Notes: generated by a model from the sequence alone, not told the origin. Positions 3,777-36,626 are shown, counted from the first letter of the stretch. The stretch: 41,094 nucleotides of DNA from Firmicutes bacterium UBA5301 (GCA_002408345.1 DHRX01000101.1:1-41094), one strand, 5' to 3'. Translations and numbers: made by a program.

Positions 3777-3878
3777 CAAAATAATCCTCCTGTTTTCCGG
3801 TCAATCTGGTTTATCAGAGAGAGATTTCCACTATTGCTTTTTTAATCCCTGCTTTAACCGCTGGGAATTTCGGGTAAA

Positions 3879-21434: not shown

Positions 21435-21571
21435 GGTTATTGCCCCCTTAATTTTCTATCCTCTTATTTTATACTATCCTCCCTGCCGTCAAATTTCAAG
21501 GTAAAGGACTAGGAACCCCCTGGGACTTTAGCCCATATACTATAGGTGTAAACGGTTAGGAGGGAAATTTA

Positions 21572-22003
21572 GTGCGTTATCGTTTAGCTAATGTCCATCG
21601 GTACCCAACAGTCGAGTATATTCCTTTGACACCAAGAATAATAAAGGAAGCGCCCGTTTGGACTAACCTCAATTACGGCAACCTTAGTCTGATTATCCAA
21701 GATGGCCTCAATGGTTGGGGCCCAGTCGCCGATAGCCTTCCCAGAGACTTTCAGGTTAAGTTACCCCCACTTCAACCTGACGAAGCTGGTCTGGTCACCC
21801 TCAACTTTACCATACTTGAGGTTATGTACCGCGCTAATACCGTCCTCGTAACCGCTGAAGAAAAATCGGATTTTACTGGTGTCTATATTATTACTAAGCG
21901 TTTTTTCTATAAGCCTAAACTGATTTTCGAAGTTTATAATTTAAAAGAAAAGAAATTGGCCTGGTCCAACTTTTTGGTGCACCTCTCAGGCAGACAAACA
22001 TAA
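21572..22003 (+). CDS. Hypothetical protein
   Basis: This 143-aa ORF has a GTG start with TAGGAGGG 8 nt upstream. I recognise no motif. Confidence 0.5.
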   Translation: MRYRLANVHRYPTVEYIPLTPRIIKEAPVWTNLNYGNLSLIIQDGLNGWGPVADSLPRDFQVKLPPLQPDEAGLVTLNFTILEVMYRANTVLVTAEEKSDFTGVYIITKRFFYKPKLIFEVYNLKEKKLAWSNFLVHLSGRQT

Positions 22004-22209: not shown

Positions 22210-23235
22210 TTAGTCATTCAATATTTGGTGATATGCGGTTAAGGTCAGGTCTCCTACACGACCCCAAGTATATTCCTGAGCAATTTTGGTTCGCAAACCT
22301 TTAGGTACAGAAGACCCATACGCTTGTACTACCGCCGTTCCAATACTTTCAAGATTATTAGGATCACAATAGAACGCCTCACTACCCAAATACTCTTGGG
22401 CTGTTCCACGATTGGTAGTAACTAACCGGCAGCCGGCTAAACCTGCTTCTAAATTAGCTAATCCTGGTGTATCGTACCAGCTAACTAAAGCATGAACCCG
22501 GGCTGCCGCATAGGCATCCGCTAAGTCACTAGGCTTTAATGGCCCTAAATAGTGATTCTTCTCCCCCAAGCTGGCCTTAAATCTACGGAAATAAGCGGCA
22601 TCCCCAGGTGTTCCTGCAAAAACCAGCTGAAAGCTAGTTCCTGCTAAAGCCTGGATTAACGCTAACTGATTCTTCCGGGGGTCAACCCTAGCTGAGCAGA
22701 AGATAAAGTCTCCGTAAATCTTGTAGCGTCGCCGGAATCTTGCTGCAGAACCGCTAGCAAAGGCTGGTTCAGTAGCATTGGGAACTACCTGGTACTTTAC
22801 CTGTAATCCGGGAAAATCTTTTTGGATTTGCTTCGCCTCTAAATAAGCGTTAGGTAACAACAACTCTGCTCCGGTGAATACTTCTCGCCGCTGGTATTGG
22901 GTTGCCTCCCACCAAGCCAAACGTTTCAGTTCTCCTGGTTCAGCCGCAATCTCCTGAACCCAACCGGCTGCATCCCAATAAATTGGAGAAACCACTATGG
23001 GCAACCCCGAATCTTTGGCCCAAAGATAGGCTGGATAGATATCTTGGATAGGGATTGTGTTGAAGATGTGGATTAAATCATAACTCTTGGACCAACGGTT
23101 AGGTTGCAACTCGAGCTTAACACTAACGCCAAGACGTTCCAGGGCTTTCTTAGTATTGAGGACCTGTACCGTATCTCCTGCTGGCACCGTAGTTAATGTT
23201 GACCTACTTAAAAAAAGTACTTTTAGGGTAGACAC
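22210..23235 (-). CDS. Glycosyltransferase, GT4 (GT-B fold) family
   Basis: The N-terminus KVLFLS is typical. The C-terminal Rossmann domain has the conserved Glu region (PGLANLEAGLAGCRLVTT). The start is ambiguous. GTG 23235 has AGGGTG 6 nt upstream. The alternatives are ATG 23253 and the track start at 23268. Confidence 0.8.
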   Translation of the reverse strand: MSTLKVLFLSRSTLTTVPAGDTVQVLNTKKALERLGVSVKLELQPNRWSKSYDLIHIFNTIPIQDIYPAYLWAKDSGLPIVVSPIYWDAAGWVQEIAAEPGELKRLAWWEATQYQRREVFTGAELLLPNAYLEAKQIQKDFPGLQVKYQVVPNATEPAFASGSAARFRRRYKIYGDFIFCSARVDPRKNQLALIQALAGTSFQLVFAGTPGDAAYFRRFKASLGEKNHYLGPLKPSDLADAYAAARVHALVSWYDTPGLANLEAGLAGCRLVTTNRGTAQEYLGSEAFYCDPNNLESIGTAVVQAYGSSVPKGLRTKIAQEYTWGRVGDLTLTAYHQILND

Positions 23236-24029
23236 GGAATACACCCTGCCCATTTTTGGACAAAACACCGCTGACTTTTCTGAAAGTAAACTAAACGTTT
23301 GTTATGATCTTCACCACTACTACCTCCTACCTCATGGTAAACAACGCTTAGGGGGTTAAATATAACTTTATAGCCTTTGAGCACAGCATTTATTGAGTAG
23401 TCTGTCTCTTCAAAATATAAGAAATATCTTTCATCAAAGCAACCTAGGACCGGAAGTAAAGCCCGCTTTATTAAGTAACAGGCTCCACCAACCGTAATAC
23501 ATTCCTCTGGTTTATTAAGCCGCCCTGGTCGGTCTGGTTGTAACCAAAATCGCGGTCGAGTTAACTCATCCCAGTTAGTCACGCCAGCTCCTACCAGTAG
23601 CCCCTGAGAATTAATCATTTTGGGCCCAACAACTGCAACCTCACTAGGCCGCGCCGTCGCTAACAGCGGTTCCAACCAGCCCTTAGTTACCTTAACATCT
23701 GGGTTTAGGAGGACAATATAAGGGTTTACCCCTCGGCGGATACCTTGGTTACAGGCAGCAGCATAACCACGGTTTTCTAAGTTAAAGATAGTTTCGATAT
23801 CGCCACGACCTTGGAGGTAACTAACACTCCCATCGCTACTGGCATTATCAACTACAATAATCTGGTACGGTTGTGGTGTATAACGGTGTAACGCTGTAAG
23901 GCAATCTGACAAATAGTGCAGAGAGTTATAGTTAACAATTACTAAGTCTACCCCCTTGGTATTAAGTTCGGTTTCCAGTTGCGGATTTTGAACACGAAAA
24001 TCACCTGGATGGTAAGCTGTAGGTACCAT
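23223..24029 (-). CDS. Glycosyltransferase, GT2 family
   Basis: The motifs DLVIVNYNS, VVDNASSDGS and FEETDY are typical of GT-A/GT2 enzymes. I predict no TM segment. Confidence 0.85.
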   Translation of the reverse strand: MVPTAYHPGDFRVQNPQLETELNTKGVDLVIVNYNSLHYLSDCLTALHRYTPQPYQIIVVDNASSDGSVSYLQGRGDIETIFNLENRGYAAACNQGIRRGVNPYIVLLNPDVKVTKGWLEPLLATARPSEVAVVGPKMINSQGLLVGAGVTNWDELTRPRFWLQPDRPGRLNKPEECITVGGACYLIKRALLPVLGCFDERYFLYFEETDYSINAVLKGYKVIFNPLSVVYHEVGGSSGEDHNKRLVYFQKSQRCFVQKWAGCIPCLP

Positions 24030-25585
24030 CTGTTCCGCATCCCCTTTCGTTTTCTTTTTTTGCCTACTCCCTGCTCTAATATACTGGCCTGGGCCGGTTG
24101 ACCGGATACTAACTCTACATCTGCTCCCGGAGGAAAATGCCAGAAGGATAGTGACGTTGCAACCTGTTCGGTTAATCCTTTTTTATTACAAACCCAAGCT
24201 TGCACCCATAAAGAACCTTGAATTTCTCCGTTTATCCCAGCCTCCGTTATTCCTGGAGTTACGACTACCTTAACTATCTTGGTAAAACCGCGGGGTAAAG
24301 CTAAATCCAACCGATATTCTGCTGCTGTGGTTACCTCATCCTCAGTGTATATTGGTCCAAACACTGGTGGCGCTGGCTCCCAGGTCTCCCGGTAAATAGC
24401 TTTAACCTCAAAAGAAACCTGCCCTAAAACAGACAAGTAATTGCGAGGCAAAATTTCTAATCGGAGATAGTCGGTTTTAGGAATTAAATAATAATCGGTT
24501 TCCGGCGGTAGTCCATTACTAGAAATTACTTTTTGTACCGGTGCCGTAAATACCAACTCTTTAACTTCATCAAAAGGGGTCACTCCAGTTACCCAGAGGA
24601 TCATCTCGGCTGTAAGTAAGAGAAAATCCTGTTTAATAATAACCTGTACCCGCTGCCAAGTTAATTGATAATCTCGGATTTTCCGGAATTCCTCACCGAT
24701 AGCAAAGGTCTCCTTGAACTCTACCAATGTTTGGGTTTCCTCAATCAAACGGTCTATTCTCAGAGGACTGTAAACTACCCCTTTAGGTATTGATATGGTT
24801 TTTTTAGCACTTATGAGCCAGTCCAAGACGAGAAATATTCTGAGGACACTGCGGCTAACGATAACTTCCCAGCAATAATTAGTTTGCACATTTACACCAG
24901 GCTCAATATTAGGATGAGAAATTAGATAAGTAAAATCTTTTTCAATAGAAACATAGCGCTCGGTTCCATTAGGGGCCGCATAATAAATACCCCCGGCTAT
25001 TTGACCGGAAATTATCGTTTCTCCGTTGAAAATAGTTGTTTCTACTGTAGTCGCGCTTATATCGGCCCGCAAAAACCCAGCCGCAACAGCTAAAGACACC
25101 GGGATATGTAGGCACTGCCGTTCCGCTCCAGAAGCTAGTAGTATATCGGCTAATACTAAACCGTTATCAGGGGTTGCCTCTGGATCTGGGTGGTGACAAT
25201 AAGGTTCCTCTTCTGTACACCATAGGTCAACATGGCAGGGTACAATTACTATAAGCTTATTACCGGCAAGGACTTCTTGCGGTTTCTTTACTAAACATCG
25301 GCTTTCCCACTGGCTTTCTGCCGGACTATAGATACTATAAAAAAAGCCTTCTTTAGCCTCGCCTTCTTGATAGATATAACCGCTCCCGCCACAGGATACT
25401 ACCAGTTGAACCAGTACAATTATCTGGACAATTATACCGCCGCCTACCGGGTGGATAATATGACTTGCCTTGGCCTCAATTTTGACAATACTACAGTTAT
25501 CCGCAGGTAACTGAAAAGTGACAGTTAGAAGCTCTTCCCCGTGGTGCTCTGATATCAGCTTTTGTAGCAGTACCTGCTCCTCCAA
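23948..25585 (-). CDS. Hypothetical protein, divergent relative of the two repeat proteins upstream; Cys/His-rich segment
   Basis: The start is TTG with GGAGG 10 nt upstream. Several segments repeat the pattern seen in the neighbouring genes: a strand, then G.I...IYY or similar, then loops (for example TIISGQIAGGIYYAAPNGTERYVSIEKDF). The Cys/His segment is CHVDLWCTEEEPYCHH. The K/R-rich tail overlaps the next gene by 82 nt. Confidence 0.6.
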   Translation of the reverse strand: MEEQVLLQKLISEHHGEELLTVTFQLPADNCSIVKIEAKASHIIHPVGGGIIVQIIVLVQLVVSCGGSGYIYQEGEAKEGFFYSIYSPAESQWESRCLVKKPQEVLAGNKLIVIVPCHVDLWCTEEEPYCHHPDPEATPDNGLVLADILLASGAERQCLHIPVSLAVAAGFLRADISATTVETTIFNGETIISGQIAGGIYYAAPNGTERYVSIEKDFTYLISHPNIEPGVNVQTNYCWEVIVSRSVLRIFLVLDWLISAKKTISIPKGVVYSPLRIDRLIEETQTLVEFKETFAIGEEFRKIRDYQLTWQRVQVIIKQDFLLLTAEMILWVTGVTPFDEVKELVFTAPVQKVISSNGLPPETDYYLIPKTDYLRLEILPRNYLSVLGQVSFEVKAIYRETWEPAPPVFGPIYTEDEVTTAAEYRLDLALPRGFTKIVKVVVTPGITEAGINGEIQGSLWVQAWVCNKKGLTEQVATSLSFWHFPPGADVELVSGQPAQASILEQGVGKKRKRKGMRNRWYLQLTIQVIFVFKIRNWKPNLIPRG

Positions 25586-25649
25586 CGGAGACTAGCCTCC
25601 TCTCGTCCTATACTACCTCAAGAAATGTATATGCTTCATAATTGCAGAC

Positions 25650-25693
25650 CATAAAAAAGATTACAGGCATTCGTTAGGAATGCCTGTAATCTT
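25650..25693 (-). terminator. Strong rho-independent terminator after the 435-aa repeat-protein gene
   Basis: The minus strand reads AAGATTACAGGCATTC-CTAAC-GAATGCCTGTAATCTT, a perfect 16-bp stem. TTTTTAT follows. Confidence 0.85.
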
Positions 25694-25716
25694 TCGTAAC
25701 CTATTTCCCTGTTGAT

Positions 25717-27024
25717 TTAGAAGAAATTGCTTAGTTGCGAATTATCGATAGTATAAGGTGGAACATAGGGCCCAACAATAACTTCTTCAACCAGAATCTG
25801 AACGGTTTCGGTAACCTTAACGAAAATCTCAATTACAACCTTCTGCTGTAACTCTGTCTCAGTAAGAAGGTTAAAACCAACAAATTCAATACGAGAGATT
25901 ACTTCCACATTAAAGCACTCTTCAGCACCAGGTACATCTACGAAGGTACTAAAGGGAACTAACTCCGTAAACTCACGTTCCACATTATCTAGATCAATAA
26001 AGTAAATTTGCTTGTGAATAATCCCCTGAATAATCACTTTGTTCTGAAGAATCTCTGTAGTTACATTTTCAATGCGGGCGTCAATTTCCCGGACTTTAAT
26101 TGCTGGAACCGGAAGAATAGCAATGGTTTCGCTAAGAAACTGAGTCGTATTTTCCCCACGAACAGCTTCAACTTTAACTAATGGCCCAGTACCTAAAGCT
26201 GCTTGAAGCTGTACCCGCTCCGTTACCTTCACAAATATCTCCAAAACGACCTTCTGACGTAATGTAGTCGGGCCTTCCAACGTAAAGGCTACAAACTCTA
26301 CTGTCGGATGGACCTGGACATCCATGCCATCTGTTGCTCCAGGAATATCTAGAAAGACGCTAAACGACACATCTTCAGCTTGGTGATGTTCAATATTATC
26401 GGTGCAAATGAAAAATATCTGTTTGTGGATTATCCCCTGAACAATAACTTTGTCCTCGATAAGCTCGAAAGTAATATCGCGAACAGTAGCTTCAATCGCG
26501 TCAACCTTGATGGCTGGACAATTCAAAGTAACAACTGTTTCTTCTAAAGTTTGGACCGTACCTTCGCCAACAACCTCATTAACCCTAATTAGTGGGCCAT
26601 CACCTAAAGCAATATTAATCTGCCGCTTTTCAGTAACTTTAATGAAAATTTCCAGAACAATCTTCTGTAATAATGTTGTGGGGTTAAGCAGGATCGGAAT
26701 TACAGCTTCAATTGTCGGGTGCACCTGAACATCCATACCCGGTAAGGCGCCGGGTATGTCCAGAAAAGTACTGAAAGAAACATCTTCCGCAATATGCCGA
26801 ACTACATTATCAGTACCAACAAAGAAAATCTGCTTATGGATGACCCCCTGAACAATAACCTTGTTTTCGATAACCTCTGTAGTAATATCCTGAACCCGAG
26901 CGACAATATCCCTAATTTTAATCGCTGGGACAGGCAAGACTAAAGTTGTTTCCGACAGGATTTGCCTGGTGTTTTCCCCGATAACCACGTCAATCTTAAC
27001 CAACGGATTCGTTACGACACTCAT
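25717..27024 (-). CDS. Repeat protein: 3 x 137-aa beta-rich module (DUF3794/SipL-SPOCS-like), no signal peptide
   Basis: The start is set at ATG 27024 (MSVVTNPLVKIDVV) with GAAGGAGGAAG upstream. Module boundaries fall at residues 7, 144 and 281. The conserved core is PAIKV..I.A.V.D.T.E.I..KVI.QG.IHKQIFF...DN...H.AEDV.FS.F.DIPGA..G.DVQVHP..E......L.QKVVLEIFVKVTE. Confidence 0.85.
   Translation of the reverse strand: MSVVTNPLVKIDVVIGENTRQILSETTLVLPVPAIKIRDIVARVQDITTEVIENKVIVQGVIHKQIFFVGTDNVVRHIAEDVSFSTFLDIPGALPGMDVQVHPTIEAVIPILLNPTTLLQKIVLEIFIKVTEKRQINIALGDGPLIRVNEVVGEGTVQTLEETVVTLNCPAIKVDAIEATVRDITFELIEDKVIVQGIIHKQIFFICTDNIEHHQAEDVSFSVFLDIPGATDGMDVQVHPTVEFVAFTLEGPTTLRQKVVLEIFVKVTERVQLQAALGTGPLVKVEAVRGENTTQFLSETIAILPVPAIKVREIDARIENVTTEILQNKVIIQGIIHKQIYFIDLDNVEREFTELVPFSTFVDVPGAEECFNVEVISRIEFVGFNLLTETELQQKVVIEIFVKVTETVQILVEEVIVGPYVPPYTIDNSQLSNFF
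25786..27006 (-). repeat. Three tandem 411-nt coding repeats
   Basis: Related nucleotide blocks recur at about 26001, 26411 and 26821 (example from the 26821 copy: aaagaaaatctgcttatggatgaccccctgaacaataacc). The protein period is exactly 137 aa. Confidence 0.85.
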
Positions 27025-27111
27025 CTTGCTTCCTCCTTCAAGTCCTAACTTAATGCTTCTCCCCCAAAGCGGTTCCAACTAAACCCCCTCTAGCTGGGGT
27101 TGGACTAATTC

Positions 27112-27141
27112 ATTATATGTGCCACCGGCACTATGTGTTAA
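27112..27141 (-). promoter_or_regulatory. Candidate sigma-A-type promoter for the 435-aa repeat-protein gene
   Basis: The minus strand reads TTAACA-N18-TATAAT about 88 nt upstream of ATG 27024. Confidence 0.35.
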
Positions 27142-27158
27142 TGGGTTTTGCAGTATAA

Positions 27159-27185
27159 GGGAGGAGATGGAAAGAGCCACCTCCC
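27159..27185 (-). other. Stem-loop 8 nt after the stop of the 744-aa gene (weak or leaky terminator)
   Basis: The minus strand reads GGGAGG-TGG-CTCTTT-CCA-(TCT)-CCTCCC, giving 6+3 bp with a 3-nt bulge. Only a poor U-tract (CTTATACT) follows. Confidence 0.4.
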
Positions 27186-27193
27186 CCCTATAA

Positions 27194-29428
27194 TTAAGTA
27201 GTAAAACGAACATCGGTAACTACCGTGACCGGTACGGGGTTAGGGTTACCGTCTCCAACTACATCTAAGAGCAGGGTTTCTTTAATAACTTCAACAATAC
27301 CGGGGCCGCTAACATCGGTAACAACCTGAATGGTTTGCAGTTCGGTACCATTGGTAACTACTTCAGCCCGTACGGTAACTTTATTGGTGGTAATACCCGG
27401 TCCAGTTACATCGGTAACTACTGCTACCTGACGACCGGTATCAGGTGCGGTTATAGAAGCTACAGCCTCTAGGACAATTAATTGATTGACAGTAGTTCCA
27501 TCTTCACTAAGGGTTAACGTAATATTTTCGATAACGATCTCTACTTCCACATTAGAGGTAGGGGTAATGCCTGGTACGCTTAGTAGTAAACTAAACGGTA
27601 CCGTTTCAGAAATATCACGCACAACGTTATCTGTCCCGACGAATCGAACCTGCTTAATAACGTCACCTTGCACAATTATGCCACCTGGTACCACTGTAGC
27701 GGTTAAATTCTGGATAGTAGCCGTTACCCCGGCAACTTTGATCGCCTGAATTGGTAATTCCACCACATTTTCGACAATAATTTGTTTAGAGACAATCTCT
27801 CCGACAACAGGAACTTGAATTAATACTTTTTCAATGGTAATAGGGCTAACTACTATTGGTCGCCGTGGTCTTTCTACCAGAATCTGCTTGCTATTTTCGC
27901 CGATAACCTGTTCCACTTTGACCAATGGACCATTACCTAAAGCTACTTGAATTTGTACCGGTTCCGTTACTTTTACGAAGAACTGCATAACCACTTTTTG
28001 ATTGAGCTGATCGGGTTCAGTAAAGTTAAAACCGATAAATTCAATGATCGGGTGTACTTGAACATCTAAACCAGATAGCGCTACTGGTATGTCGATAAAG
28101 GTGCTAAAAGCTACATCTTCTGCTTGATGTACTTCAATATTATTGGTGTTAATAAAGAAAATTTGCTTGTGTAAAACCCCCTGAATTACAACCTTATCTG
28201 CTAAAACATGGGTCGTGAGATTTCTGATTTCTGCTATGATTTCTCGAACTTTGATCGCTGACTGGTTAAGGGTAACCACTGTATCGCTGAGCAGCTGAGT
28301 TGTCCCTTCTCCTACGACTTCACCAAGAGCTAAAAGTGGCCCCATACCTGGTTGGACTTGAATTTGAATAGTTTCTGTGATTTTGACAAATATCTCGAGA
28401 ACTACTTTTTGCCGCAAAGTAACCTGATCTTCCAAGATAAACCCGACAAATTCTACACTAGGATGTACTTGCACATTCTGTCCTTCTGCAGCTCCTGGTA
28501 TATCAATAAAGGTACTAAAGGGGACGTCTTCCGCTAAATGACGGCTAATTCCATTCAAATCTACAAAAAAGATTTGCTTGTGAATAATCCCCTGAATAAT
28601 AACCTTGTCCGCAATTATCTCTGTAGTTACATCCTGGACTTTGGCCACAATTTCGGCGACTTTAATGGCTGGATTGGGTAAGGTTACTACTGTTTCGGAA
28701 AGATGCTGGGTGCTACCCTCCCCAATAACAGATTCGGTCTTAAATAAGGGGCCGGTTCCTACCGCTAACTGTAGCTGAACAGTCTCAGTTACTTTGACAA
28801 AAATCTGGAGTACTACTTTTTCCACTAGCACCCGACTTGGTGGGTTGACCAACCGGAAAATAATATCTTCAATTACCGGGTTTACCAACACATTCATCCC
28901 TGGTAGCGCTCCAGGAACATCAATAAAGGTGCTAAAGTTGATATCCTCTGCTTGATGCCGGACAAAACCATCGACATCCACATAAAATATTTGCTTATGG
29001 ATTACCCCTTGGATTATGACCTTGTTTTCAATCACTGTTACTTCAATATCCCGTACCTCACCCCGAATCTCCCGAACCTTACGGGCAGGGAAATCCAGCA
29101 AAGTTTGTCCCGCCAATACCTCCGGCTCTGGTGTAACAATTATATCTTGCATAGGAATAACCGCAATTTGATTACTGCCTACCGCTGTTTCCTGGGTATT
29201 GTTTTGAGCCACAGCTACCGCTACAGCATTGAGATCGTCCCGGTTTTGGGATAAGGTTACTGTTTGTTGTTTTTGAAAATTAGAAATCGCATCGGCCACC
29301 GCTGCTTTGTTTTCAGCAATATGAGCTTTGATGACTTTACTGTTAGTGCTTTGAACCGAAACTCTACTGGTTCCAAACTTGCCTGTATAGCCTAGCGGGC
29401 CTCCCGAACCCGGCTTCTTCGTCACCAT
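27194..29428 (-). CDS. Repeat protein: low-complexity N-terminus, 4 x 137-aa module (the last degenerate), C-terminal VVTDVxGPGI mini-repeats; no signal peptide
   Basis: The start is set at ATG 29428 (MVTKKPGSGGPLGY) with AAGGGGG upstream. The track's 51-aa extension (to 29581) overlaps the preceding gene. Module boundaries fall at residues 90, 227, 364 and 501. The core motif is the same as in the 435-aa paralog. Confidence 0.85.
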   Translation of the reverse strand: MVTKKPGSGGPLGYTGKFGTSRVSVQSTNSKVIKAHIAENKAAVADAISNFQKQQTVTLSQNRDDLNAVAVAVAQNNTQETAVGSNQIAVIPMQDIIVTPEPEVLAGQTLLDFPARKVREIRGEVRDIEVTVIENKVIIQGVIHKQIFYVDVDGFVRHQAEDINFSTFIDVPGALPGMNVLVNPVIEDIIFRLVNPPSRVLVEKVVLQIFVKVTETVQLQLAVGTGPLFKTESVIGEGSTQHLSETVVTLPNPAIKVAEIVAKVQDVTTEIIADKVIIQGIIHKQIFFVDLNGISRHLAEDVPFSTFIDIPGAAEGQNVQVHPSVEFVGFILEDQVTLRQKVVLEIFVKITETIQIQVQPGMGPLLALGEVVGEGTTQLLSDTVVTLNQSAIKVREIIAEIRNLTTHVLADKVVIQGVLHKQIFFINTNNIEVHQAEDVAFSTFIDIPVALSGLDVQVHPIIEFIGFNFTEPDQLNQKVVMQFFVKVTEPVQIQVALGNGPLVKVEQVIGENSKQILVERPRRPIVVSPITIEKVLIQVPVVGEIVSKQIIVENVVELPIQAIKVAGVTATIQNLTATVVPGGIIVQGDVIKQVRFVGTDNVVRDISETVPFSLLLSVPGITPTSNVEVEIVIENITLTLSEDGTTVNQLIVLEAVASITAPDTGRQVAVVTDVTGPGITTNKVTVRAEVVTNGTELQTIQVVTDVSGPGIVEVIKETLLLDVVGDGNPNPVPVTVVTDVRFTT
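27206..27427 (-). repeat. Short C-terminal coding repeats (VVTDVTGPGI / VVTDVSGPGI / VVTDV)
   Basis: The motif occurs three times, at protein residues 669, 702 and 736. Each copy is followed by a short beta-like stretch. Confidence 0.7.
27449..29161 (-). repeat. Four tandem coding repeats (3 x 411 nt plus one degenerate unit with a ~23-codon insertion)
   Basis: Related nucleotide blocks recur at about 28151, 28561 and 28981, and in degenerate form near 27645. Protein module boundaries are exactly 137 aa apart. Confidence 0.85.
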
Positions 29429-29433
29429 GAAAA

Positions 29434-29480
29434 AACCCCCTTTTGTCCACGTTTCAATACATGATATGCAAAAGGGGGTT
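29434..29480 (-). promoter_or_regulatory. 12-bp perfect hairpin burying the SD of the 744-aa gene, with a terminator-like U-tract ending at the ATG
   Basis: The minus strand reads AACCCCCTTTTG-(23-nt loop)-CAAAAGGGGGTT-TTTTC-ATG. The 3' arm contains the only SD (AAGGGGG). Confidence 0.6.
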
Positions 29481-29505
29481 AATGTGCTTATAGCCTGTTT
29501 AATTT

Positions 29506-30468
29506 CTATTGAACTAACTCGTCTCGCCAGTAGCCAAGCAAATCGGCGAGGCTTTGCTCTAACGGAATTTCCGGCTGCCAACCTGTCTGTTTTTCTAATT
29601 TTTTATAGCTACCTAAAAGTAGCGGAACATCAGAAGGACGCATCCGTTTAGGATCTTGCTTTACTTCTACCTTAACCCCGGAGAGCTCAATTAAAAAGTC
29701 TAACACCCGATAAATCGGCCAAGCCCGGCCAGAACAGATCTGGTAAATCTCACCGGGTTTTCCCTTAGTTACCGCTAACCAGTAACCCCGCACAACATCC
29801 CGGACATCAGTAAAATCCCGTTGCGCTTCTAAATTACCAACGTAAATAATCGGCTCCTTAAGGCCCAGTTGGATTTCACTAATTTGCTTGGCAAAGTTTG
29901 ATGTCACAAAGACTTCTCCACGGCGTGGTCCTGTATGGTTAAATGCACGGGTTCGGATCGTCTGCAACCCGTAACTTTGAAAATATTGATATGCCATAAG
30001 ATCCTGAGCAACCTTACTGACCGCATAGGGGCTGAGAGGGCGTAGCGGACTTTCTTCAGTTATCGGTACCTCATCTGGATAAACCAGCCCATATTCTTCG
30101 CTAGAACAAGCGATTTGAATGATTGCTGATGGTGCAAACTCTCTTACCGCCTCAAATAGGTTGAGTTGTCCGATAATATTATTAATAAAGGTATCTGAAG
30201 GTGAATTCCATGAAGTCGGCACATAGCTCTGAGCTGCCAAGTGGAAGATGTAGTCCGGTTTAATTTGGGCAATTATCTCACTAACCGAATTGGCATCTTT
30301 TAGCTCACACTCAACAAGCCGGACTTTATTTTGGAGGTGTCCAATATTCTGGCGCTTGCTCCGCCACCGAAAGGTTCCATATACTGTACAATCGGTATTA
30401 GCTAAAAGATATTCTGCTAAATGACTGCCGGCAAAACCGGTAATACCTGTGATTAAAGCTTTTGGCAT
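29506..30468 (-). CDS. SDR-family NDP-sugar dehydratase/reductase (GDP-mannose 4,6-dehydratase / Rmd-like)
   Basis: The motifs GITGFAGSHL (NAD fold), SSEEYG, YAVSK (catalytic YxxxK) and RAFNHTGPRRG are characteristic of the Gmd/Rmd branch. Confidence 0.8.
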   Translation of the reverse strand: MPKALITGITGFAGSHLAEYLLANTDCTVYGTFRWRSKRQNIGHLQNKVRLVECELKDANSVSEIIAQIKPDYIFHLAAQSYVPTSWNSPSDTFINNIIGQLNLFEAVREFAPSAIIQIACSSEEYGLVYPDEVPITEESPLRPLSPYAVSKVAQDLMAYQYFQSYGLQTIRTRAFNHTGPRRGEVFVTSNFAKQISEIQLGLKEPIIYVGNLEAQRDFTDVRDVVRGYWLAVTKGKPGEIYQICSGRAWPIYRVLDFLIELSGVKVEVKQDPKRMRPSDVPLLLGSYKKLEKQTGWQPEIPLEQSLADLLGYWRDELVQ

Positions 30469-30475
30469 TAATAAT

Positions 30476-30519
30476 ACCTCCTACATACACTTGTCCTGTG
30501 ACCAGTGTATGTAGGAGGT
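30476..30519 (-). promoter_or_regulatory. 15/16-bp perfect hairpin burying the SD of the SDR gene
   Basis: The minus strand reads (A)CCTCCTACATACACT-GGTCACAGGACA-AGTGTATGTAGGAGG(T)-ATTATTA-ATG. The GGAGG of the 3' arm is the gene's SD, and the 5' arm is a perfect anti-SD. Confidence 0.6.
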
Positions 30520-30534
30520 TAACTGGATGTCCCT

Positions 30535-31236
30535 TTAGCGATGGGTATAGACAGTAGCTGTATTCCGAGCCCAGCCTCCATTTTCGGCTATGCTCTGCAA
30601 AAAGCTCTCTATAGCTCCAGCTCCTGTTGCTTGTGAACCTTCTGGAAAACAACCTTTTTCTTGAATTAAGTCCCGAGAACAAAGAAAACAACCTGCACTA
30701 GAAGTAGCAATACGTTGACTACCATACCTCCGGGCTAACCCGGTAGCAAAAGTATCAAAACTGCCATTGTATGCTTGGTTTAAATCCGCTTCGCTACTAA
30801 AAGCACCGCTGGAGATCCCCCGCACAGCTTCTGCATAACGGCCAAACACCGACGCATACTTTAACACCGTCTGGCGATCAATACTACGAATTAAGCCGGT
30901 TTTTCTTTTAGCATGCCATAGCTTCAATAAGTTTGAAAGCCAATCTGTTGGTAAAACACAGCCGGTCTGTACTATAGCTACCGCTTCCCCACTTGCCGTA
31001 CGTAAGCCCCAATTCCAAGCTGTCGTTAACCCCATTTCCACGGGAAAACGAATTAGCTTACGATTTGGTAACTCCTTCAAATAGGTTCCAGAGCCATCGG
31101 TAGTACCATTATCTACTACAATTAACTCATCCAACCGGCTAGTTTCCCGCAATAACCGCTGGAAAAAGAACAAATTTTCGCTCAACCCATTACCAACCGC
31201 TACAATAACGGAACAGGTCGCTAACACTACTAACAC
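30535..31236 (-). CDS. Glycosyltransferase, GT2 family
   Basis: The motif LIVVDNGTTDGSGTYL is present within a GT-A-like N-terminal half. The start is GTG (31236, or 31227 with GGGGTG upstream). I predict no TM segment. Confidence 0.7.
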   Translation of the reverse strand: MLVVLATCSVIVAVGNGLSENLFFFQRLLRETSRLDELIVVDNGTTDGSGTYLKELPNRKLIRFPVEMGLTTAWNWGLRTASGEAVAIVQTGCVLPTDWLSNLLKLWHAKRKTGLIRSIDRQTVLKYASVFGRYAEAVRGISSGAFSSEADLNQAYNGSFDTFATGLARRYGSQRIATSSAGCFLCSRDLIQEKGCFPEGSQATGAGAIESFLQSIAENGGWARNTATVYTHR

Positions 31237-31276
31237 CCCGGTATAGTATATAGCTACCGGCTATACCGGGTGTTAG
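31230..31276 (-). promoter_or_regulatory. 16-bp hairpin (one bulged C) spanning from the stop of the upstream gene to the GTG start of the GT2 gene
   Basis: The minus strand reads TAA-CTAACACCCGGTATAG-(14-nt loop)-CTATACCGGGGTGTTAG. The 3' arm covers the GTG at 31234..31236. Confidence 0.55.
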
Positions 31277-31906
31277 TTATAGTTCAATTATTTCTTTCAT
31301 TGCCGTCATCATCTGCTCCTGCGGCAGATCTAAAGTTACCCAAACTAATTGGCTGCCTCGCTGATAAAAGAAATGCATTAAACCATTGCCGATAGTCTGG
31401 TAATAAAGTCTTTTTCTAATCGGCATAGGCATTGGCGTTGAATAGATATCGTTGGTCTTCATCTTCTCAATCATCTGGCTTAATAATTGGCTAGCCTCTT
31501 CTACTGAAGGTGAAGTAGAAAACCAAAACTCTAAACTATTGCCTTTTTGCCCATAACGCGCAACTATACCGTCGCTAACTGTAATCCCCTTGCCATGTAA
31601 AGTATTAATAGCTTCTAGCGCTTCTGATCCTTGAGTTACCTGGGCCAAATCTAAGGCTAAAATTTCTTTAGGTAGTGTTGCAACAGTTAAGGGAAGCACC
31701 GCTGACTCATAATCAACATCTACAACAACTGGAATCTCTACATTGCCCATATTGGCTGACCCCATACTGCTTAAACCATCCATAGGTCCTGGCATGGTAG
31801 ATGGAGGCGTAGAGCTCTGCCGTGTCTGAATAAGGCCTACCCCAATAACAGCAACCATCACAACAATTACGCCACCAATAACTAGGTTTCGTGCTGACAT
31901 TTTCAT
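31277..31906 (-). CDS. Hypothetical membrane-anchored, Met-rich, Cys-free protein at the tail of the ccm operon
   Basis: AGGGGGA lies 5 nt before the ATG, which is 28 nt after ccmD. One N-terminal TM segment is present (LVIGGVIVVMVAVIGVGLI). Met-rich stretches follow (MPGPMDGLSSMGSANMGN, TPMPMPI). Confidence 0.6.
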   Translation of the reverse strand: MKMSARNLVIGGVIVVMVAVIGVGLIQTRQSSTPPSTMPGPMDGLSSMGSANMGNVEIPVVVDVDYESAVLPLTVATLPKEILALDLAQVTQGSEALEAINTLHGKGITVSDGIVARYGQKGNSLEFWFSTSPSVEEASQLLSQMIEKMKTNDIYSTPMPMPIRKRLYYQTIGNGLMHFFYQRGSQLVWVTLDLPQEQMMTAMKEIIEL

Positions 31907-32075: not shown

Positions 32076-32777
32076 CTATAATTCAGCCCGTAACTCTTCT
32101 TTAACCTGGGTTACTTCTAACCTTAGTTTGGCGATATTTAGCCGGATAACCAGAAAGTAAAAGTATAATAAGGTAAATGCAGCTATACTCACCAACAATG
32201 TAGCTGTCATTTTCGGTGATAGACCAACATTACCGCCTTCAAAAATTAACGGATGGATCGTCCGCCACCAGCGGATCGCCATAAATACAATAGGTACATC
32301 CACAAAACCAATTATACCGAATACCGCAGCAAACCGAGCCCGTTTTTCATCCTCTTCAGCAGAATTACGGATTAATAAATAAGCTACATAGATAAACCAG
32401 AGAATCAGGGTAGTTGTTAGCCGAGGATCCCAGGTCCACCAAACATTCCAGGCGGCTTTAGCCCAGACAGGACCGGTTAATAACACCAGCGAACAGTAAA
32501 CAATCCCAATCTCTGCCGAGGCAGCTGCCAGTACATCCCAGCGCCGTGAACGGGTTTTTAGGTATGCAATACTACCTACAAAAACTACAAAGAAAGCCAA
32601 GAATTCAATCCAGGCCACCGAAACATGGAAATAAAGAATCTTTTGTACCTCTGGAAAATCAGAAACATTAGCCGGCAAAGGAGCAAATATAAAAACCATA
32701 TATAACGCTACTAGTAACGCTACAAATGTTGCTCCCCCTAAAACAGTTCTTGCCCCGTTTACACTCACACTAATCAC
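32076..32777 (-). CDS. ccmC: Heme exporter protein CcmC
   Basis: The Trp-rich WWD motif (WNVWWTWDPRL) is present. The product is a polytopic membrane protein of 233 aa. Confidence 0.9.
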   Translation of the reverse strand: MISVSVNGARTVLGGATFVALLVALYMVFIFAPLPANVSDFPEVQKILYFHVSVAWIEFLAFFVVFVGSIAYLKTRSRRWDVLAAASAEIGIVYCSLVLLTGPVWAKAAWNVWWTWDPRLTTTLILWFIYVAYLLIRNSAEEDEKRARFAAVFGIIGFVDVPIVFMAIRWWRTIHPLIFEGGNVGLSPKMTATLLVSIAAFTLLYFYFLVIRLNIAKLRLEVTQVKEELRAEL

Positions 32778-32784
32778 CTCGTCT

Positions 32785-33465
32785 TTACGCTTCTAACAAA
32801 TACTCAAATAACAAGAAAGGAATGACCAAAAATACTACATCAAAGACTGCAATCACCCTTAGCCAAGTAGCAATCTCAGCCAACCCGCCTCCGGCAAAGA
32901 GCAGTTTGGTCATTTCCACCGAACCGATTACCACAGGGATAATAATCGGAAATAAAATTATTGGTAGTAAAACCTCACTAGAGCGTGTGTTACTAGCTAG
33001 CGCCGCTAAGAAGGTACCTACGGCAACAAAGCCAAAAGTGCCGGAAACAACTACTACCGTTAGCCAAAACCAAGATGCGGAATAATTAAAATCAAAGAGA
33101 ATCAGAAATATCGGTAGAGATACCGCTTCGATTAAGGTAGTTAAGCAAAAATTGCTGACCACTTTACCAAAATAAATAGCACTACGGTCTACCGGCGCCA
33201 ACATCAAACCTTGAATCGACTCATTATTATGTTCCGACAGAAAGGAGCGATTCAGCCCTAAAATCCCGGAAAAAAGAAAGGCGACCCAAATAATGCCCGG
33301 TAAAATTTGCTTAATACTTTCTAGCGTTGGGTTAAAAGCAAAACTAAACGTAACAATCACCAGGAACGCAAAGATTAGCATAGAGCTAAGCATCTCTTTA
33401 GTCCGAAATTCAGCCTTCAAATCCTTCCAGACAATTGCTTTAACCGAAGCTAAAAACTGGTTCAC
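32785..33465 (-). CDS. ccmB: Heme exporter permease CcmB
   Basis: The 226-aa product has about six predicted TM segments. The N-terminal pattern is typical of CcmB (WKDLKAEFRTKEML). An ATGA overlap couples it to ccmA. Confidence 0.85.
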   Translation of the reverse strand: MNQFLASVKAIVWKDLKAEFRTKEMLSSMLIFAFLVIVTFSFAFNPTLESIKQILPGIIWVAFLFSGILGLNRSFLSEHNNESIQGLMLAPVDRSAIYFGKVVSNFCLTTLIEAVSLPIFLILFDFNYSASWFWLTVVVVSGTFGFVAVGTFLAALASNTRSSEVLLPIILFPIIIPVVIGSVEMTKLLFAGGGLAEIATWLRVIAVFDVVFLVIPFLLFEYLLEA

Positions 33466-34169
33466 TTTCGGCCACCTACCTTCTCCAGGTAGAGTTCTCT
33501 TAATTCCGCTAGTCCCCCTATTTCTGAGCTAGGTCCATAGTAGCGCACTAAACCCTTACTGAGAATCAGTATCTCATCACTCATAGTTAAACCCACATCC
33601 AAATCATGGGTAATCATAACCACAGTTCTTCGTTGGTCCTTTAAACCTTTAAGCACCGAGTTCAACAAGCCAATAGCCTGTTGATCTAGACCGGTATGAG
33701 GCTCGTCCAAAAAAAGAATCCGTGGGTTATGAAGTATTGCCCGGGCAATAGCTAAACGCTGTTGCATTCCCCGAGAAAAGACGCGAACAGGATCGTTAAA
33801 AAACAAGTTTAACCCAACCTCAGCAATAACTTCATCAACCCGTTCCTCTAAGTTTGGAATCTGGTATAGTCGTCCATAAAAAAGAAGGTTCTCCCGAGCG
33901 GTCAAATTACCATAAAGGTAGGAATGATGGGAGATAACCCCAATCATTCCCCTTAATTGGGTCGTATTATCCTCAACTTTTTCCCCAGCAATATATAGCT
34001 CACCGCTAGATGGTAGGGTTAACAGGGCTAATATTTTCAGTAAGGTGGTTTTACCTGCCCCATTGGGCCCGAAAATAGTCAGAAACCGACCTTCCTCTAA
34101 TGTGAGATCAACTCCGTGAAGAATCTCCTTACTACCTATCTTTTTCTTCAGCTGTACCGCTTTAATAAT
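33462..34169 (-). CDS. ccmA: Heme exporter ATPase CcmA (probable ATT start)
   Basis: The track shows only the C-terminal 161 aa. The same frame continues upstream through Walker A (IFGPNGAGKTTLLKIL) to ATT-ATT at 34169/34166, just after an in-frame TGA. GGTGGGAAGG lies 10 nt upstream of the first ATT (34169). There is no in-frame ATG, GTG or TTG upstream of Walker A. Confidence 0.8.
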   Translation of the reverse strand: MIKAVQLKKKIGSKEILHGVDLTLEEGRFLTIFGPNGAGKTTLLKILALLTLPSSGELYIAGEKVEDNTTQLRGMIGVISHHSYLYGNLTARENLLFYGRLYQIPNLEERVDEVIAEVGLNLFFNDPVRVFSRGMQQRLAIARAILHNPRILFLDEPHTGLDQQAIGLLNSVLKGLKDQRRTVVMITHDLDVGLTMSDEILILSKGLVRYYGPSSEIGGLAELRELYLEKVGGRK

Positions 34170-34188
34170 AGGTCTTCATCCTTCCCAC

Positions 34189-36186
34189 CTACTTTTGGAG
34201 GCTAGTTCCCGCCTCTACAGCCAAACTTCTTTTGGCAGGCCACAAGGCAACAACCGTACCTACTATCAACAGGTACATTCCAATCCAAATCCAGTACACT
34301 AAATAGTTCACCATTACCTTAAATGTTGCTATTTCTCCCCCACGTTCCCAACCAGCCAAAATAATATATAAGTCTTCACTTAAGTTCCCTCGAACAGCAA
34401 CCTCACTCCGCTGTCGTTCTGGCTCTTGAGGGTTGAGGTAATTAGGGTGAAACTGCAATTCAGGTTTCATAATACCTTTGTTTTTACCATTCTTGGCAAC
34501 CTCTAAAGTCGCATATACACTGGAGTGGCCGTAGACAAATTCTTCATTAAGGCCGCGGTAAGTCAGCTGATAGTCACCAACTGTCCACGTTTCCCCTAAC
34601 TTTACCGCCTGGGACTTCTCAATATCAAAGGGCGCCCCAGCAAAACCGATCATACACAGGGCTACCGATAAGTGGACAATGTAGGCACCAAAGCGACGGC
34701 GATTACCCACTAGTGATTTCCAAAAACTAGTTAATCCCCCTTCGCCCGTCTTTTCACTGCGAACAACAGCGGTACTATTTACCTCTAGAATAAGGTTAAG
34801 AATTACGAAGAAGGCGCTACCGATAGCTAGAGCTGAACCAATATGGCGTACACCAATTAGGTATAAAACCAAAGATAAAACTAGAGTAGCTCCTAGTGAA
34901 TAATAGAAATCAACCGGAAAGAGGGGAGCCCCTTCCTTACGTTTCCAGGATATACGGATACAAGCACCCATGAGAAAGACTAAGGCTATACCTAACGGTA
35001 CATTAACCAAGTTATAATAATTCTGATCTAAGCTGACTTCGGCACCCATAAAGTTTCGGGAAATAACCGGGAAAAGACTACCGATCAAAACCGCTAGGGT
35101 AATTGTAACTAAAATATAGTTAGTTAATACGACGCTACCTTCCTTAGAGAAAAAGGTATTAATTTGACCAGAGTCGGCTACAACATCACGCCGTTTGTAC
35201 AATAAAATGAGGGGCACACCAACTATAATGGCCATAAAGACATGGAATAGCGTATTTAGTAATGGAATCCCTGGGAAACCGTGAACCGACTGGACAATTC
35301 CGCTCCGAGTGAGGTAGGTTCCAAAGATACACAAGCCATAGGAAAGGATAACCAACAGTAAGCTAGTAGCATTCAGAGCTCTATTCCGCTCATGGAGCAG
35401 CGCTGAGTGTAGAAAGGCTGTAGCTACCAACCACGGAAAAACAGAGGCGTTCTCAACAGGGTCCCACGCCCAATAACCGCCCCAACCAAGCTCAACATAA
35501 GCCCACTGTGCTCCGTAAAGAATACCGATTGATAGAAAACCCCACGCTATTAACGACCATAACCGGGTATACTTAACCCAGTTAAAATCTATTTTCTTTT
35601 TAAATAAAGTTGCTACCCCCAAAGAAAAGGGAACAGCAAAAGCTACATAACCTAAATATAAAGTAACCGGGTGAATAACCATCCCTATGTTTTGGAGTAA
35701 TGGGTTTAATCCAACACCATCAGGATAAGTCATGTCCAAACGAGCAAAGGGGTTCATCATAAACGCAGTTACACCAAAGAAAAAGATGGCAATAAAGGTC
35801 ATAATAGCCGAAGCCGTCGGCCTTAGCTCTGCAGTTTCGGTGTTTTCAGAAAAAGCTAACAAAGTTCCGAAGATTGTATGGAACCAAAGCCAGAGCAAGA
35901 GTGAACCTTCTTGTCCCGCCCAAAAAGCTGAAATTTTATACATCGGTGGTAACGCCCGGTTAGTATGTTGAACCACATACTGAACCGAAAAGTCACCGGT
36001 TAAGAGTAAGTAAACTAAAATCGCTGAAGCAACGGTCGATAGAAAAGCCATAACCGCCATTCCACCGTTAGCTGTTTTCACTAAACGCTCATTTTTACCT
36101 ACCAAAGCCATTACATATGTAACTATTGTGTAGATAGAAACCAAAAAACCCGAAACCAGTGCTAAATACCCTAAATCTGCCATCAT
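34189..36186 (-). CDS. ccmF: Cytochrome c-type biogenesis protein CcmF (heme lyase component)
   Basis: The 665-aa polytopic product carries the WWD motif (GGYWAWDPVENAS). Confidence 0.9.
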   Translation of the reverse strand: MMADLGYLALVSGFLVSIYTIVTYVMALVGKNERLVKTANGGMAVMAFLSTVASAILVYLLLTGDFSVQYVVQHTNRALPPMYKISAFWAGQEGSLLLWLWFHTIFGTLLAFSENTETAELRPTASAIMTFIAIFFFGVTAFMMNPFARLDMTYPDGVGLNPLLQNIGMVIHPVTLYLGYVAFAVPFSLGVATLFKKKIDFNWVKYTRLWSLIAWGFLSIGILYGAQWAYVELGWGGYWAWDPVENASVFPWLVATAFLHSALLHERNRALNATSLLLVILSYGLCIFGTYLTRSGIVQSVHGFPGIPLLNTLFHVFMAIIVGVPLILLYKRRDVVADSGQINTFFSKEGSVVLTNYILVTITLAVLIGSLFPVISRNFMGAEVSLDQNYYNLVNVPLGIALVFLMGACIRISWKRKEGAPLFPVDFYYSLGATLVLSLVLYLIGVRHIGSALAIGSAFFVILNLILEVNSTAVVRSEKTGEGGLTSFWKSLVGNRRRFGAYIVHLSVALCMIGFAGAPFDIEKSQAVKLGETWTVGDYQLTYRGLNEEFVYGHSSVYATLEVAKNGKNKGIMKPELQFHPNYLNPQEPERQRSEVAVRGNLSEDLYIILAGWERGGEIATFKVMVNYLVYWIWIGMYLLIVGTVVALWPAKRSLAVEAGTSLQK

Positions 36187-36209
36187 CAGAATGTCCTCCT
36201 AACGCGGTT

Positions 36210-36626
36210 TTACTCCGCACTTCCTTCTTCATATTTTGAAGGGCACTTGACCATTAATTTATCGGCGGTTAATACACCGTTGGCGTCTAGCTTTCCTTCA
36301 ACTATGGCTTCATTGCCGTGCTCAAAATTATTGGGCTTAATACCATGGTAAATTACAGGCAGATAATTTCCGCTGGAATCATCCGGTCTGGGCGCCAAAG
36401 CAAACTTCAAGAGCACATTTTCCCCATCCCAGTCGATTTCATCCCCAACTAAATACCCGCTAACCCGTAGAGGTTTATCAAGTAACTCCGAACCATTGTT
36501 CAGAACCTCTTCCACAGTCTGATAATACGCTGAAGACTTGGAAAACCCAAAGTACATCAAAAAAAGGATTGCAGCAAAAACAACCCCTATTCCGGCAAAA
36601 ATTCTTCCCTTCCTGGATAACGGCAT
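36210..36626 (-). CDS. ccmE: Heme chaperone CcmE, Cys-type (CxxxY) variant
   Basis: The product has an N-terminal TM anchor and an OB-fold-like body (LRVSGYLVGDEIDWDGENVLLKF). The heme-attachment region reads KCPSKY where canonical CcmE has HxxxY. Confidence 0.85.
   Translation of the reverse strand: MPLSRKGRIFAGIGVVFAAILFLMYFGFSKSSAYYQTVEEVLNNGSELLDKPLRVSGYLVGDEIDWDGENVLLKFALAPRPDDSSGNYLPVIYHGIKPNNFEHGNEAIVEGKLDANGVLTADKLMVKCPSKYEEGSAE

Follow-up and report, generated by a model that had tools for sequence, protein, structure and literature searches.

A 41,094-nucleotide stretch of DNA from Firmicutes bacterium UBA5301 (GCA_002408345.1 DHRX01000101.1:1-41094; hereafter the window, to which coordinates refer unless a locus is named) carries the genes of three proteins, here called A, B and C, interleaved with those of four sugar-modifying enzymes. 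Together with p143, a small convergent open reading frame (ORF), we propose that they form an eight-gene sporulation cluster comprising A, B, C, the glycosyltransferases GT2a, GT2b and GT4, the short-chain dehydrogenase/reductase SDR, and p143. This cluster probably encodes a late mother-cell, glycosylated spore-envelope scaffold. The protein family, the lack of export signals, the sigma-K-like promoters, the linkage to GT4 and an Rmd-like enzyme and, in one lineage, an adjacent SipL gene lead us to a late mother-cell layer of SPOCS proteins with sugars. An initial annotation of the window had already suggested a spore-surface layer, and the PF12673 matches, the conserved neighborhood, the sigma-K-type motifs and the adjacent SipL genes of Halanaerobiales lend support to that suggestion.

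SPOCS modules of proteins A and B, and probably of C

Proteins A (27194..29428, minus strand, 744 aa) and B (25717..27024, minus strand, 435 aa) have four and three tandem SPOCS (DUF3794) modules, respectively, and are predicted to be cytoplasmic and all-beta. The initial annotation had proposed homology to this family as a test that could refute its idea. In a Pfam search the match to PF12673 ('SipL, SPOCS domain', DUF3794; gathering cutoff 23.6 bits) is highly significant for both proteins, with 165.6 bits for A (four stretches, E 3e-49) and 129.8 bits for B (three stretches, E 4.5e-38). The modules are ~139 aa long, self-comparison by BLAST finds those of A and B to be 49-59% identical, and a module alignment reproduces the consensus given earlier. 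The view that the proteins consist almost entirely of one module is right for B (~96%) and not for A, which has an extra N-terminus and a C-terminal domain.

Protein A begins with a low-complexity N-terminus of 94 aa (residues 1-94), continues with three canonical modules (28748..29170, 28343..28747 and 27929..28342) and a fourth, diverged one (27389..27838), all four delimited by Pfam, repeat BLAST and module alignment, and closes with a 65-aa C-terminal domain (27197..27388) that contains VVTDVxGPGI repeats and LLDVVGDGNPNPVPV. This domain is conserved in A-like orthologues, and its motif LLDVV(N/G)DGNPNPVPV is kept in the A-like proteins of other genomes. Protein B is made of three tandem modules (26602..27018, 26191..26601 and 25774..26190; Pfam, repeat BLAST, AlphaFold2 (AF2)) and ends in a short tail, VGPYxPxY, that is conserved. 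The AF2 model of B, built on a 37-sequence alignment (predicted local distance difference test, pLDDT, 90.7; predicted template-modeling score, pTM, 0.66), shows 18 long strands, of which each module has six, and a tail that is disordered. By strand count, these six agree with the barrel of two three-stranded sheets described for the SPOCS domain (bioRxiv 10.64898/2026.09.03.749163). A Foldseek comparison of the model with PDB and BFVD returned no meaningful match (TM <= 0.13), so that the fold lacks a structural anchor and nothing hints at a phage origin, and a profile search with the B family found no solved relative among PDB sequences.

The earlier observation that A, B and C carry no LysM, SLH or other anchoring domain is borne out by the Pfam search, and a hydropathy scan found no N-terminal hydrophobic segment in any of them. 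The lack of signal peptides and wall-binding domains fits assembly from the mother-cell cytoplasm. The B family counts 642 proteins at E<=1e-5 among the candidates scored, and most of the top homologues are 416-419 aa long and ~60% identical. Several B-type proteins (P0024, P0027, P0048, P0098) have been wrongly named 'ribosome biogenesis SPOUT family RNA methylase Rps3' by the Joint Genome Institute (JGI).

The characterized proteins of the SPOCS fold (SpoVID, CotE, SipL, CsxA and CsxC) are all spore-envelope proteins (literature including bioRxiv 10.64898/2026.09.03.749163). SipL of Clostridioides difficile, a member of the same PF12673 family, is predicted to consist of three tandem DUF3794 domains (bioRxiv 10.64898/2026.09.03.749163), an architecture shared by B, whereas A has four. 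The novelty initially claimed for poly-module proteins is accordingly narrower: tandem SPOCS domains are known from SipL, while no description of the cluster itself was found in the searchable literature. Like A and B, SipL is cysteine-poor and free of a signal peptide, and all three modules of B align with an Anoxybacter SipL-type protein containing SPOCS and LysM domains (22% identity, E 3e-16). SipL differs in its C-terminal LysM domain, which the SipL neighboring the Anoxybacter cluster also has, whereas PF01476 finds no match in A, B or C. This domain is the part of SipL reported to bind SpoIVA. The modules of A and B are also far more regular than those of SipL, being 49-59% identical to each other; their promoters look sigma-K-type (AC at -35) and not sigma-E-type (ATA); and their genes are linked to GT4, an Rmd-like SDR, a C-like protein and p143. 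In Halanaerobiales, SipL coexists with the cluster as a separate gene. Given the missing LysM and this coexistence, we rejected the identification of A or B as SipL itself.

A second group, which includes CsxA and CsxC of Clostridium sporogenes, CdeC and CsA/CsB, consists of SPOCS-fold exosporium or parasporal lattice proteins thought to self-assemble from the mother-cell side. Proteins of the CsxA/CsxC type are cysteine-rich, single-unit, predicted trimers whose lattices are thought to be disulphide-cross-linked (bioRxiv 10.64898/2026.09.03.749163). They have 14-24 cysteines per subunit, as against 0 in A, 3 in B and 9 in C (0-5 in the A-like orthologues), and a single unit per chain, as against three modules in B and four in A. 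B matches the NCBIfam model NF045794 (CsxC_fam) at E 2.9e-4 with 20.9 bits, far under the cutoff of 135, and A and C do not match it. We rejected an assignment of A and B to this type on the grounds of the few cysteines and the low score. A and B belong to the SPOCS superfamily and combine features in a new way.

Protein C (23948..25585, minus strand, 545 aa, TTG start) is the weak point of the observation. The initial annotation had placed it with A and B; its PF12673 match (E 0.0023, 18.6 bits) lies under the 23.6-bit cutoff and comes with modest repeat support, and BLASTP aligns it with A at 28% identity (E 5e-7). Profile comparison with hhalign gives four weak matches of the C family to the SPOCS module profile at a spacing of ~130 aa (best E 4e-5), five matches for the family of 660-745-aa C-like proteins found at the same position in other lineages, and a probability of 96.8% (E 2e-10) between the two families. 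The AF2 model of C, built on a 4-sequence alignment and too poor (pLDDT 47) for a fold search, so that its strand count alone was used, is all-beta, its 24 strands falling into four sets of six. C is thus a probable diverged, multi-module relative of A and B with about four degenerate SPOCS-like modules. It is lineage-specific: libraries of 5.8 billion and 1.8 billion proteins hold only 4-5 close homologues, and a whole-library profile search with the C family returned 4 close cluster representatives together with weak multi-stretch SPOCS matches. One of the nine cysteines of C is invariant among these homologues.

The 3' end of the C gene overlaps the start of GT2b by 82 nt (23948..24029). 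We considered and rejected the idea that this overlap is an artefact, because homologues only 40% identical to C still conserve the protein sequence of its basic C-terminal tail. In the relative GB_MAG18_067 (locus L006, 11493..14416), two extra ORFs of 246 and 705 aa lie between B and C, the longer being as large as the C-like proteins of other lineages. The 545-aa C of the window may thus be a paralogue that replaced or outlived the longer C-like form.

Gene order and promoter motifs across lineages

We surveyed one genome per species, which gave 71 distinct genome loci, and mapped homologues in 75 sources (74 fetched loci and the window). Conservation of the neighborhood had been named as another point on which the initial idea could fail; the neighborhood is conserved, with a GT4 homologue in 49 of the 75 sources. 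The recurrent order is an A-like gene (750-890 aa), a B-like gene (416-650 aa), a C-like gene (660-745 aa, no Pfam match), GT4 (~335 aa) and a convergent ORF of ~140 aa. In nearly every mapped locus the GT4 homologue directly follows the B-like or C-like gene, and no other enzyme accompanies the SPOCS genes as constantly. Carriers include Hydrogenispora ethanolica, a Capillibacterium sp., Anoxybacter fermentans and Halanaerobiales, the rest being metagenome-assembled genomes (MAGs) of Bacillota. Hydrogenispora ethanolica and Anoxybacter fermentans are described spore formers. Three cluster-bearing MAGs (L008, L029 and L037) are labeled Bacteroidota or Patescibacteria, which is probably a matter of mis-binning or mislabeling.

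The gene order of the window is common to its closest relatives (L004, L005, L006). GT2a homologues occur in 15 sources, and GT2b homologues adjoin B-like genes in 19, several of them with sigma-K-like motifs. At other sites, A-like genes are often followed by an SDR homologue (L053, L058, L064, L066, L068, L069). In Hydrogenispora, the stretch upstream of the B-like gene holds four further glycosyltransferases (PF13524, GT-D-like) and a 3D-domain protein, as well as two DegT aminotransferases, an epimerase and a PglD-like acetyltransferase. GT4 is missing from the loci of Anoxybacter and other Halanaerobiales, where a true SipL-type gene (SPOCS and LysM) comes after the cluster; a SipL gene adjoins the cluster in four loci.

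The convergent ORF p143 (21572..22003, plus strand, 143 aa), which faces GT4 and has no known domain (Pfam and NCBIfam searches gave no match), is an eighth conserved member of the cluster that was absent from the initial list. Its homologue search produced only five word-sharing relatives, and the family was recovered by iterated searches with hidden Markov models (HMMs) in the fetched loci, where 28 loci, among them the Halanaerobiales loci that have no GT4, contain a homologue, invariably at this convergent position. It is probably a further structural or assembly component.

A further variation concerns the N-terminus of the B-type proteins. The SPOCS part of these starts with a conserved MDPL(I/V)RAEVV. 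In 15 of 47 B-type genes it is preceded by a fused N-terminal hydrophobic helix and linker (L044, 9323..11257; also L021, L027, L030-L032, L045, L046 and L049), while another 24 have a separate small upstream ORF with a homologous helix and the motif ...LTxWLxKYH (L002, 9704..9907; equivalents in L007-L018). The helix is therefore present in one form or the other in 39/47, and the 8 genes with neither include those of the window and its closest relatives. Basic residues come after the helix, and by the positive-inside rule the SPOCS part is therefore cytoplasmic. The fused genes also keep a strong ribosome-binding site and an ATG immediately ahead of the SPOCS part and may thus yield both a long tethered and a short free product. 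The helix points to a membrane-proximal layer in those lineages and not necessarily to the outermost crust.

Evidence on the timing of expression comes from promoter-like motifs. Sigma-E and sigma-K promoters of C. difficile share a CATA-type -10 element and differ at -35, where sigma-E has ATA and sigma-K has AC; in the sigma-K promoters listed, the AC lies ~17 nt upstream of CATA, and the P2 promoter of sigK has CATATAAT at -10 and AC at -35 (PMC3789822). We used AC-N17-CATAnnnT as the literature pattern for sigma-K. On the minus strand of the window, it occurs upstream of SDR as ACATCCAGTTAACCTCCTACATACACT (30504..30530; AC-N17-CATACACT), and motifs of this type are also found upstream of the SDR homologues in L006, L018 and L053. 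The motif upstream of B, AACACATAGTGCCGGTGGCACATATAAT (27112..27139, minus strand), has a -10 element identical to the CATATAAT of sigK P2 and AC 17 nt upstream of it; it is kept upstream of B-like genes in L005, L020, L027, L029 and others. The clearest sigma-K-type motif of the cluster, ACCCCCTGGGACTTTAGCCCATATACT (21515..21541, plus strand), precedes p143. The motif upstream of A, AGCACATTAACCCCCTTTTGCATATCAT (29461..29488, minus strand; -35 AGCAC, -10 CATATCAT), has the form AGCAC-N15-CATATCAT, in which GC replaces AC at the -35 position, and this architecture is kept upstream of A-like genes in >25 loci.

The literature pattern is not over-represented in the window (4 matches, 5 expected), and three of the four matches lie just upstream of B, SDR and p143. 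The window alone proves nothing about sigma-K, and the signal lies in the positions of the matches and in the comparison across loci. Upstream of p143 orthologues the literature pattern is found in 20/26 cases, against 21/578 for other genes (Fisher p 4e-21). A related pattern that allows GC at -35 occurs upstream of 41/89 A- and B-like genes, against 15/578 others (Fisher p 4e-28), and the consensus of the A- and B-like promoters reads T.AGCAC-N15-CATATA.TGTA.TAG. The joint A and B pattern has 2 matches in 41 kb where 0.11 are expected, which is no test, the pattern having been derived from both. In the rest of the genes, the literature pattern becomes rarer the farther a gene lies from the SPOCS genes, going from 8.4% at 1-2 genes to 3.8% at 3-5 and 1.6% beyond, and the matches include GT2 neighbors, the 3D-domain gene, a conserved divergent gene of ~210 aa and a SipL-type gene. 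A sigma-E-type pattern, ATA-N16-18-CATA[CT]A.T, is essentially absent across the loci. The earlier idea of expression in the mother cell thereby gains independent, if predicted, evidence in the form of conserved sigma-K-type promoter motifs.

The divergent gene (~210-220 aa) is transcribed away from the B-like gene in L007, L009, L013, L014, L016 and L048, all of one lineage. The sigma-K-type motif that goes with it, ACAYTCATTGGGCTTAAATCATATAAT, hardly varies, and the gene may also belong to the regulon.

Each of the genes A and B is also followed by a candidate hairpin on the minus strand. A stem-loop directly 3' of the stop codon of A (27154..27192) has no clear U-run and a predicted RNA folding energy of -23.9 kcal/mol (z -4.3), and an intrinsic terminator follows B (25655..25695; a stem of 12-18 bp and a U-run; -26.8 kcal/mol, z -7.0), which the terminator scan missed and RNA folding confirmed. 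A and B thus appear to be separate transcription units.

Sugar enzymes and flanking genes

The seven ORFs initially described are all present at their coordinates on the minus strand, and the view that the four enzymes among them are soluble stands, as Pfam and a hydropathy scan give no convincing transmembrane segment. GT2a (30535..31236, 233 aa, GTG start), the first gene of the cluster, is a family-2 glycosyltransferase (PF00535, E 1.2e-14) whose hydrophobic N-terminus is the first strand of the GT2 fold. GT2b (23223..24029, 268 aa from the ATG at 24029; PF00535, E 2.6e-22) belongs to the same family. Its only alternative start is a TTG at 23912, with none before codon 40; metagenome gene callers start the gene at that TTG or omit it. 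GT2b overlaps the GT4 ORF (22210..23235/23268, 341/352 aa; PF00534, E 4e-12, and PF13692), and the C/GT2b and GT2b/GT4 overlaps suggest translational coupling. GT4 has no solved relative by sequence and gives the impression of a dedicated family. All enzymes of the window stay below the NCBIfam equivalog cutoffs.

The SDR (29506..30468, 320 aa; PF16363, E 3e-82), an NDP-sugar short-chain dehydrogenase/reductase, had been described as Gmd/Rmd-like. The Rmd half of this description stands: the best solved relative, over the full length, is 2pk3, the GDP-6-deoxy-D-lyxo-4-hexulose reductase Rmd of Aneurinibacillus thermoaerophilus (E 9e-91). The Gmd half does not, as matches to GDP-mannose 4,6-dehydratases are at E 8e-44 or weaker and the score against TIGR01472 (gmd), 185 bits, is below the cutoff of 415. 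The likeness to Rmd points to a GDP-linked 6-deoxyhexose such as D-rhamnose, and the SDR is probably a GDP-4-keto-6-deoxy-D-mannose reductase making GDP-D-rhamnose or a related 6-deoxyhexose. The window contains no Gmd gene that could supply its substrate. In Aneurinibacillus, Rmd feeds D-rhamnose into the glycan of a surface-layer glycoprotein.

As a working analogy we take the sps, cgeAB and cgeCDE crust genes of B. subtilis and the glycosylation of BclA in the B. cereus group, where soluble glycosyltransferases act with rhamnose-type enzymes. In these systems, soluble mother-cell glycosyltransferases and 6-deoxyhexose nucleotide-sugar enzymes decorate the outermost spore proteins. Their scaffolds, CotVWXYZ and CgeA on the one hand and the collagen-like BclA on the other, are unrelated to SPOCS repeats, and the sugar route predicted here is GDP-based and Rmd-like and not of the dTDP-L-rhamnose type. 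PF13524 glycosyltransferases adjoin the SPOCS genes in the Hydrogenispora loci; CgeB is presumably a member of PF13524 too.

Within the window, the cluster is flanked by housekeeping genes, namely those for arginyl-tRNA synthetase, polyamine synthesis, an iron-type ABC transporter, fumarase, LemA/TPM, YlbF and cytochrome c maturation system I. The GC content is flat across the region, and we rejected an origin from a prophage or mobile element given this and the lack of phage-like folds. A protein of 209 aa with a single N-terminal transmembrane helix (31277..31906, minus strand), encoded between the cytochrome c maturation genes and GT2a, had no match in Pfam and NCBIfam searches; it is conserved at this position in L005 and L006. 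A hairpin at ~31237..31270, between this gene and GT2a, ends the upstream ccm and 209-aa protein genes. The window also encodes a YjbH-like protein (3129..3779, minus strand; PF06082) and the full system I set for cytochrome c maturation, CcmA, B, C, E and F (32076..36626, minus strand). Both are commoner in outer-membrane bacteria, and they agree with the placement of the relatives among Bacillota of the Hydrogenispora and Halanaerobiales type.

A putative spore-envelope scaffold, its alternatives and its meaning

We therefore envisage the following model. RNA polymerase with sigma-K would transcribe A and B, each from its own promoter and with a hairpin downstream, as well as SDR and p143, while C, GT2b and GT4 would form a translationally coupled unit. 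The three-module units would fold into SipL-like, pseudo-threefold bodies that self-assemble on the forespore surface; as A and B contain few cysteines, disulphide cross-links would play no part in this assembly. The Rmd-like SDR would supply a GDP-6-deoxyhexose, and the GT2 and GT4 enzymes would, by analogy with sps/cge, put sugars on the SPOCS proteins, perhaps on the low-complexity N-terminus of A, or build a glycan that the SPOCS proteins hold. In most related lineages, the B-type protein would be tethered by its single N-terminal helix with the SPOCS part on the mother-cell side, the membrane being presumably the outer forespore membrane; the lineage of the window lacks the helix.

Several points weigh against this scaffold model. 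It is built entirely from sequence, nothing demonstrates that the SPOCS proteins are the sugar acceptors, and both the identity of the envelope layer and the glycosylation of the proteins are what we infer. The loci of Halanaerobiales that have no GT4 indicate that glycosylation is not obligatory for the protein module. The promoter consensus is that of C. difficile and may not be that of these lineages, the strict A/B pattern was derived afterwards from the window and a few loci, the B motif also resembles a sigma-A promoter (TTAACA-18-TATAAT, 11/12 match), and C has no recognizable sigma-K motif of its own. The genes on either side are all housekeeping genes, and the Foldseek comparison gave no solved structure on which the predicted fold of B could be anchored.

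A and B could instead be coat morphogenetic adaptors, analogues of SipL or SpoVID that form a basement layer on the outer forespore membrane and not a structural outer layer, while the glycosyltransferases make a separate, co-regulated spore polysaccharide. The three-module architecture that B shares with SipL, their alignment, the scarcity of cysteines in A and B as in the 'morphogenetic' class of SPOCS proteins (bioRxiv 10.64898/2026.09.03.749163), and the membrane-proximal position implied by an own or preceding transmembrane helix in 39/47 B-like genes would all suit such a role. We nevertheless regard it as unlikely, since A, B and C have no LysM, Halanaerobiales have a SipL gene of its own beside the cluster, the -35 element is the AC of sigma-K and not the ATA of sigma-E expected of an early morphogenetic gene, and the tight B-C-GT4 linkage suits a direct functional tie to the enzyme.

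It is very unlikely that the proteins have no spore role at all and form a vegetative cytoplasmic or membrane-associated scaffold, for instance one lining the inner membrane of possibly two-membraned Bacillota, next to enzymes making an ordinary envelope glycan. The link to sporulation comes from sequence, the B motif is also a near-perfect sigma-A promoter, membrane-anchored B variants exist, the flanking genes are housekeeping genes, and the family is concentrated in MAGs of the Hydrogenispora and Capillibacterium type and in Halanaerobiales. On the other hand, every characterized SPOCS protein is a spore-envelope protein and a SipL gene is adjacent in four loci. The conserved promoter positions (GCAC at -35, CATA at -10) are those that matter for sigma-K, the -35 is a poor one for sigma-A in most loci, and the literature sigma-K pattern is 20-fold enriched upstream of p143 orthologues. 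Finally, that the sugar genes are close by incidentally, as a polysaccharide locus beside a spore-protein family, is highly improbable: GT2a is confined to the closest relatives, the accessory glycosyltransferases vary between lineages and the Halanaerobiales loci have no GT4, but most lineages have GT4 after the B-like or C-like gene in spite of B identities of only 50-60%, the C/GT2b and GT2b/GT4 overlaps suggest translational coupling, pairs of A-like and SDR genes recur at separate loci, and neighboring glycosyltransferase genes share the promoter motif.

If the scaffold model is correct, the cluster would be a variant on the SPOCS spore-envelope proteins and not a categorically new system, and the layer that it builds would most likely be a previously undescribed one. 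A bolder possibility, which we consider quite unlikely, is that A, B, the C-like protein, GT4 and p143 constitute the main endospore envelope-building system of two-membraned Bacillota, by which we mean Hydrogenispora/Limnochordia-like groups and Halanaerobiales, in the form of a SPOCS lattice that a single conserved helix tethers directly to the outer forespore membrane and that is then glycosylated in the mother cell. If true, such a lattice would be a way of anchoring the coat unlike the SpoVM-SpoIVA-SipL/SpoVID route, and possibly one suited to spores that keep an outer membrane.

Nearly all knowledge of the spore envelope comes from Bacillus and a few Clostridium species. The cluster offers a defined and widely conserved set of candidate envelope genes for little-studied spore formers that are mostly known from MAGs: two proteins of regular SPOCS repeats and a third that evolves fast, together with a dedicated GT4, an Rmd-like enzyme and the small p143. 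The regular, soluble and self-similar beta modules might also serve as self-assembling materials, and the consensus T.AGCAC-N15-CATATA.TGTA.TAG could help predict the late mother-cell regulon in these lineages. More generally, the cluster would extend the proposal that SPOCS is a general building block of the spore envelope (bioRxiv 10.64898/2026.09.03.749163) to a cysteine-poor, multi-module and probably glycosylated form.

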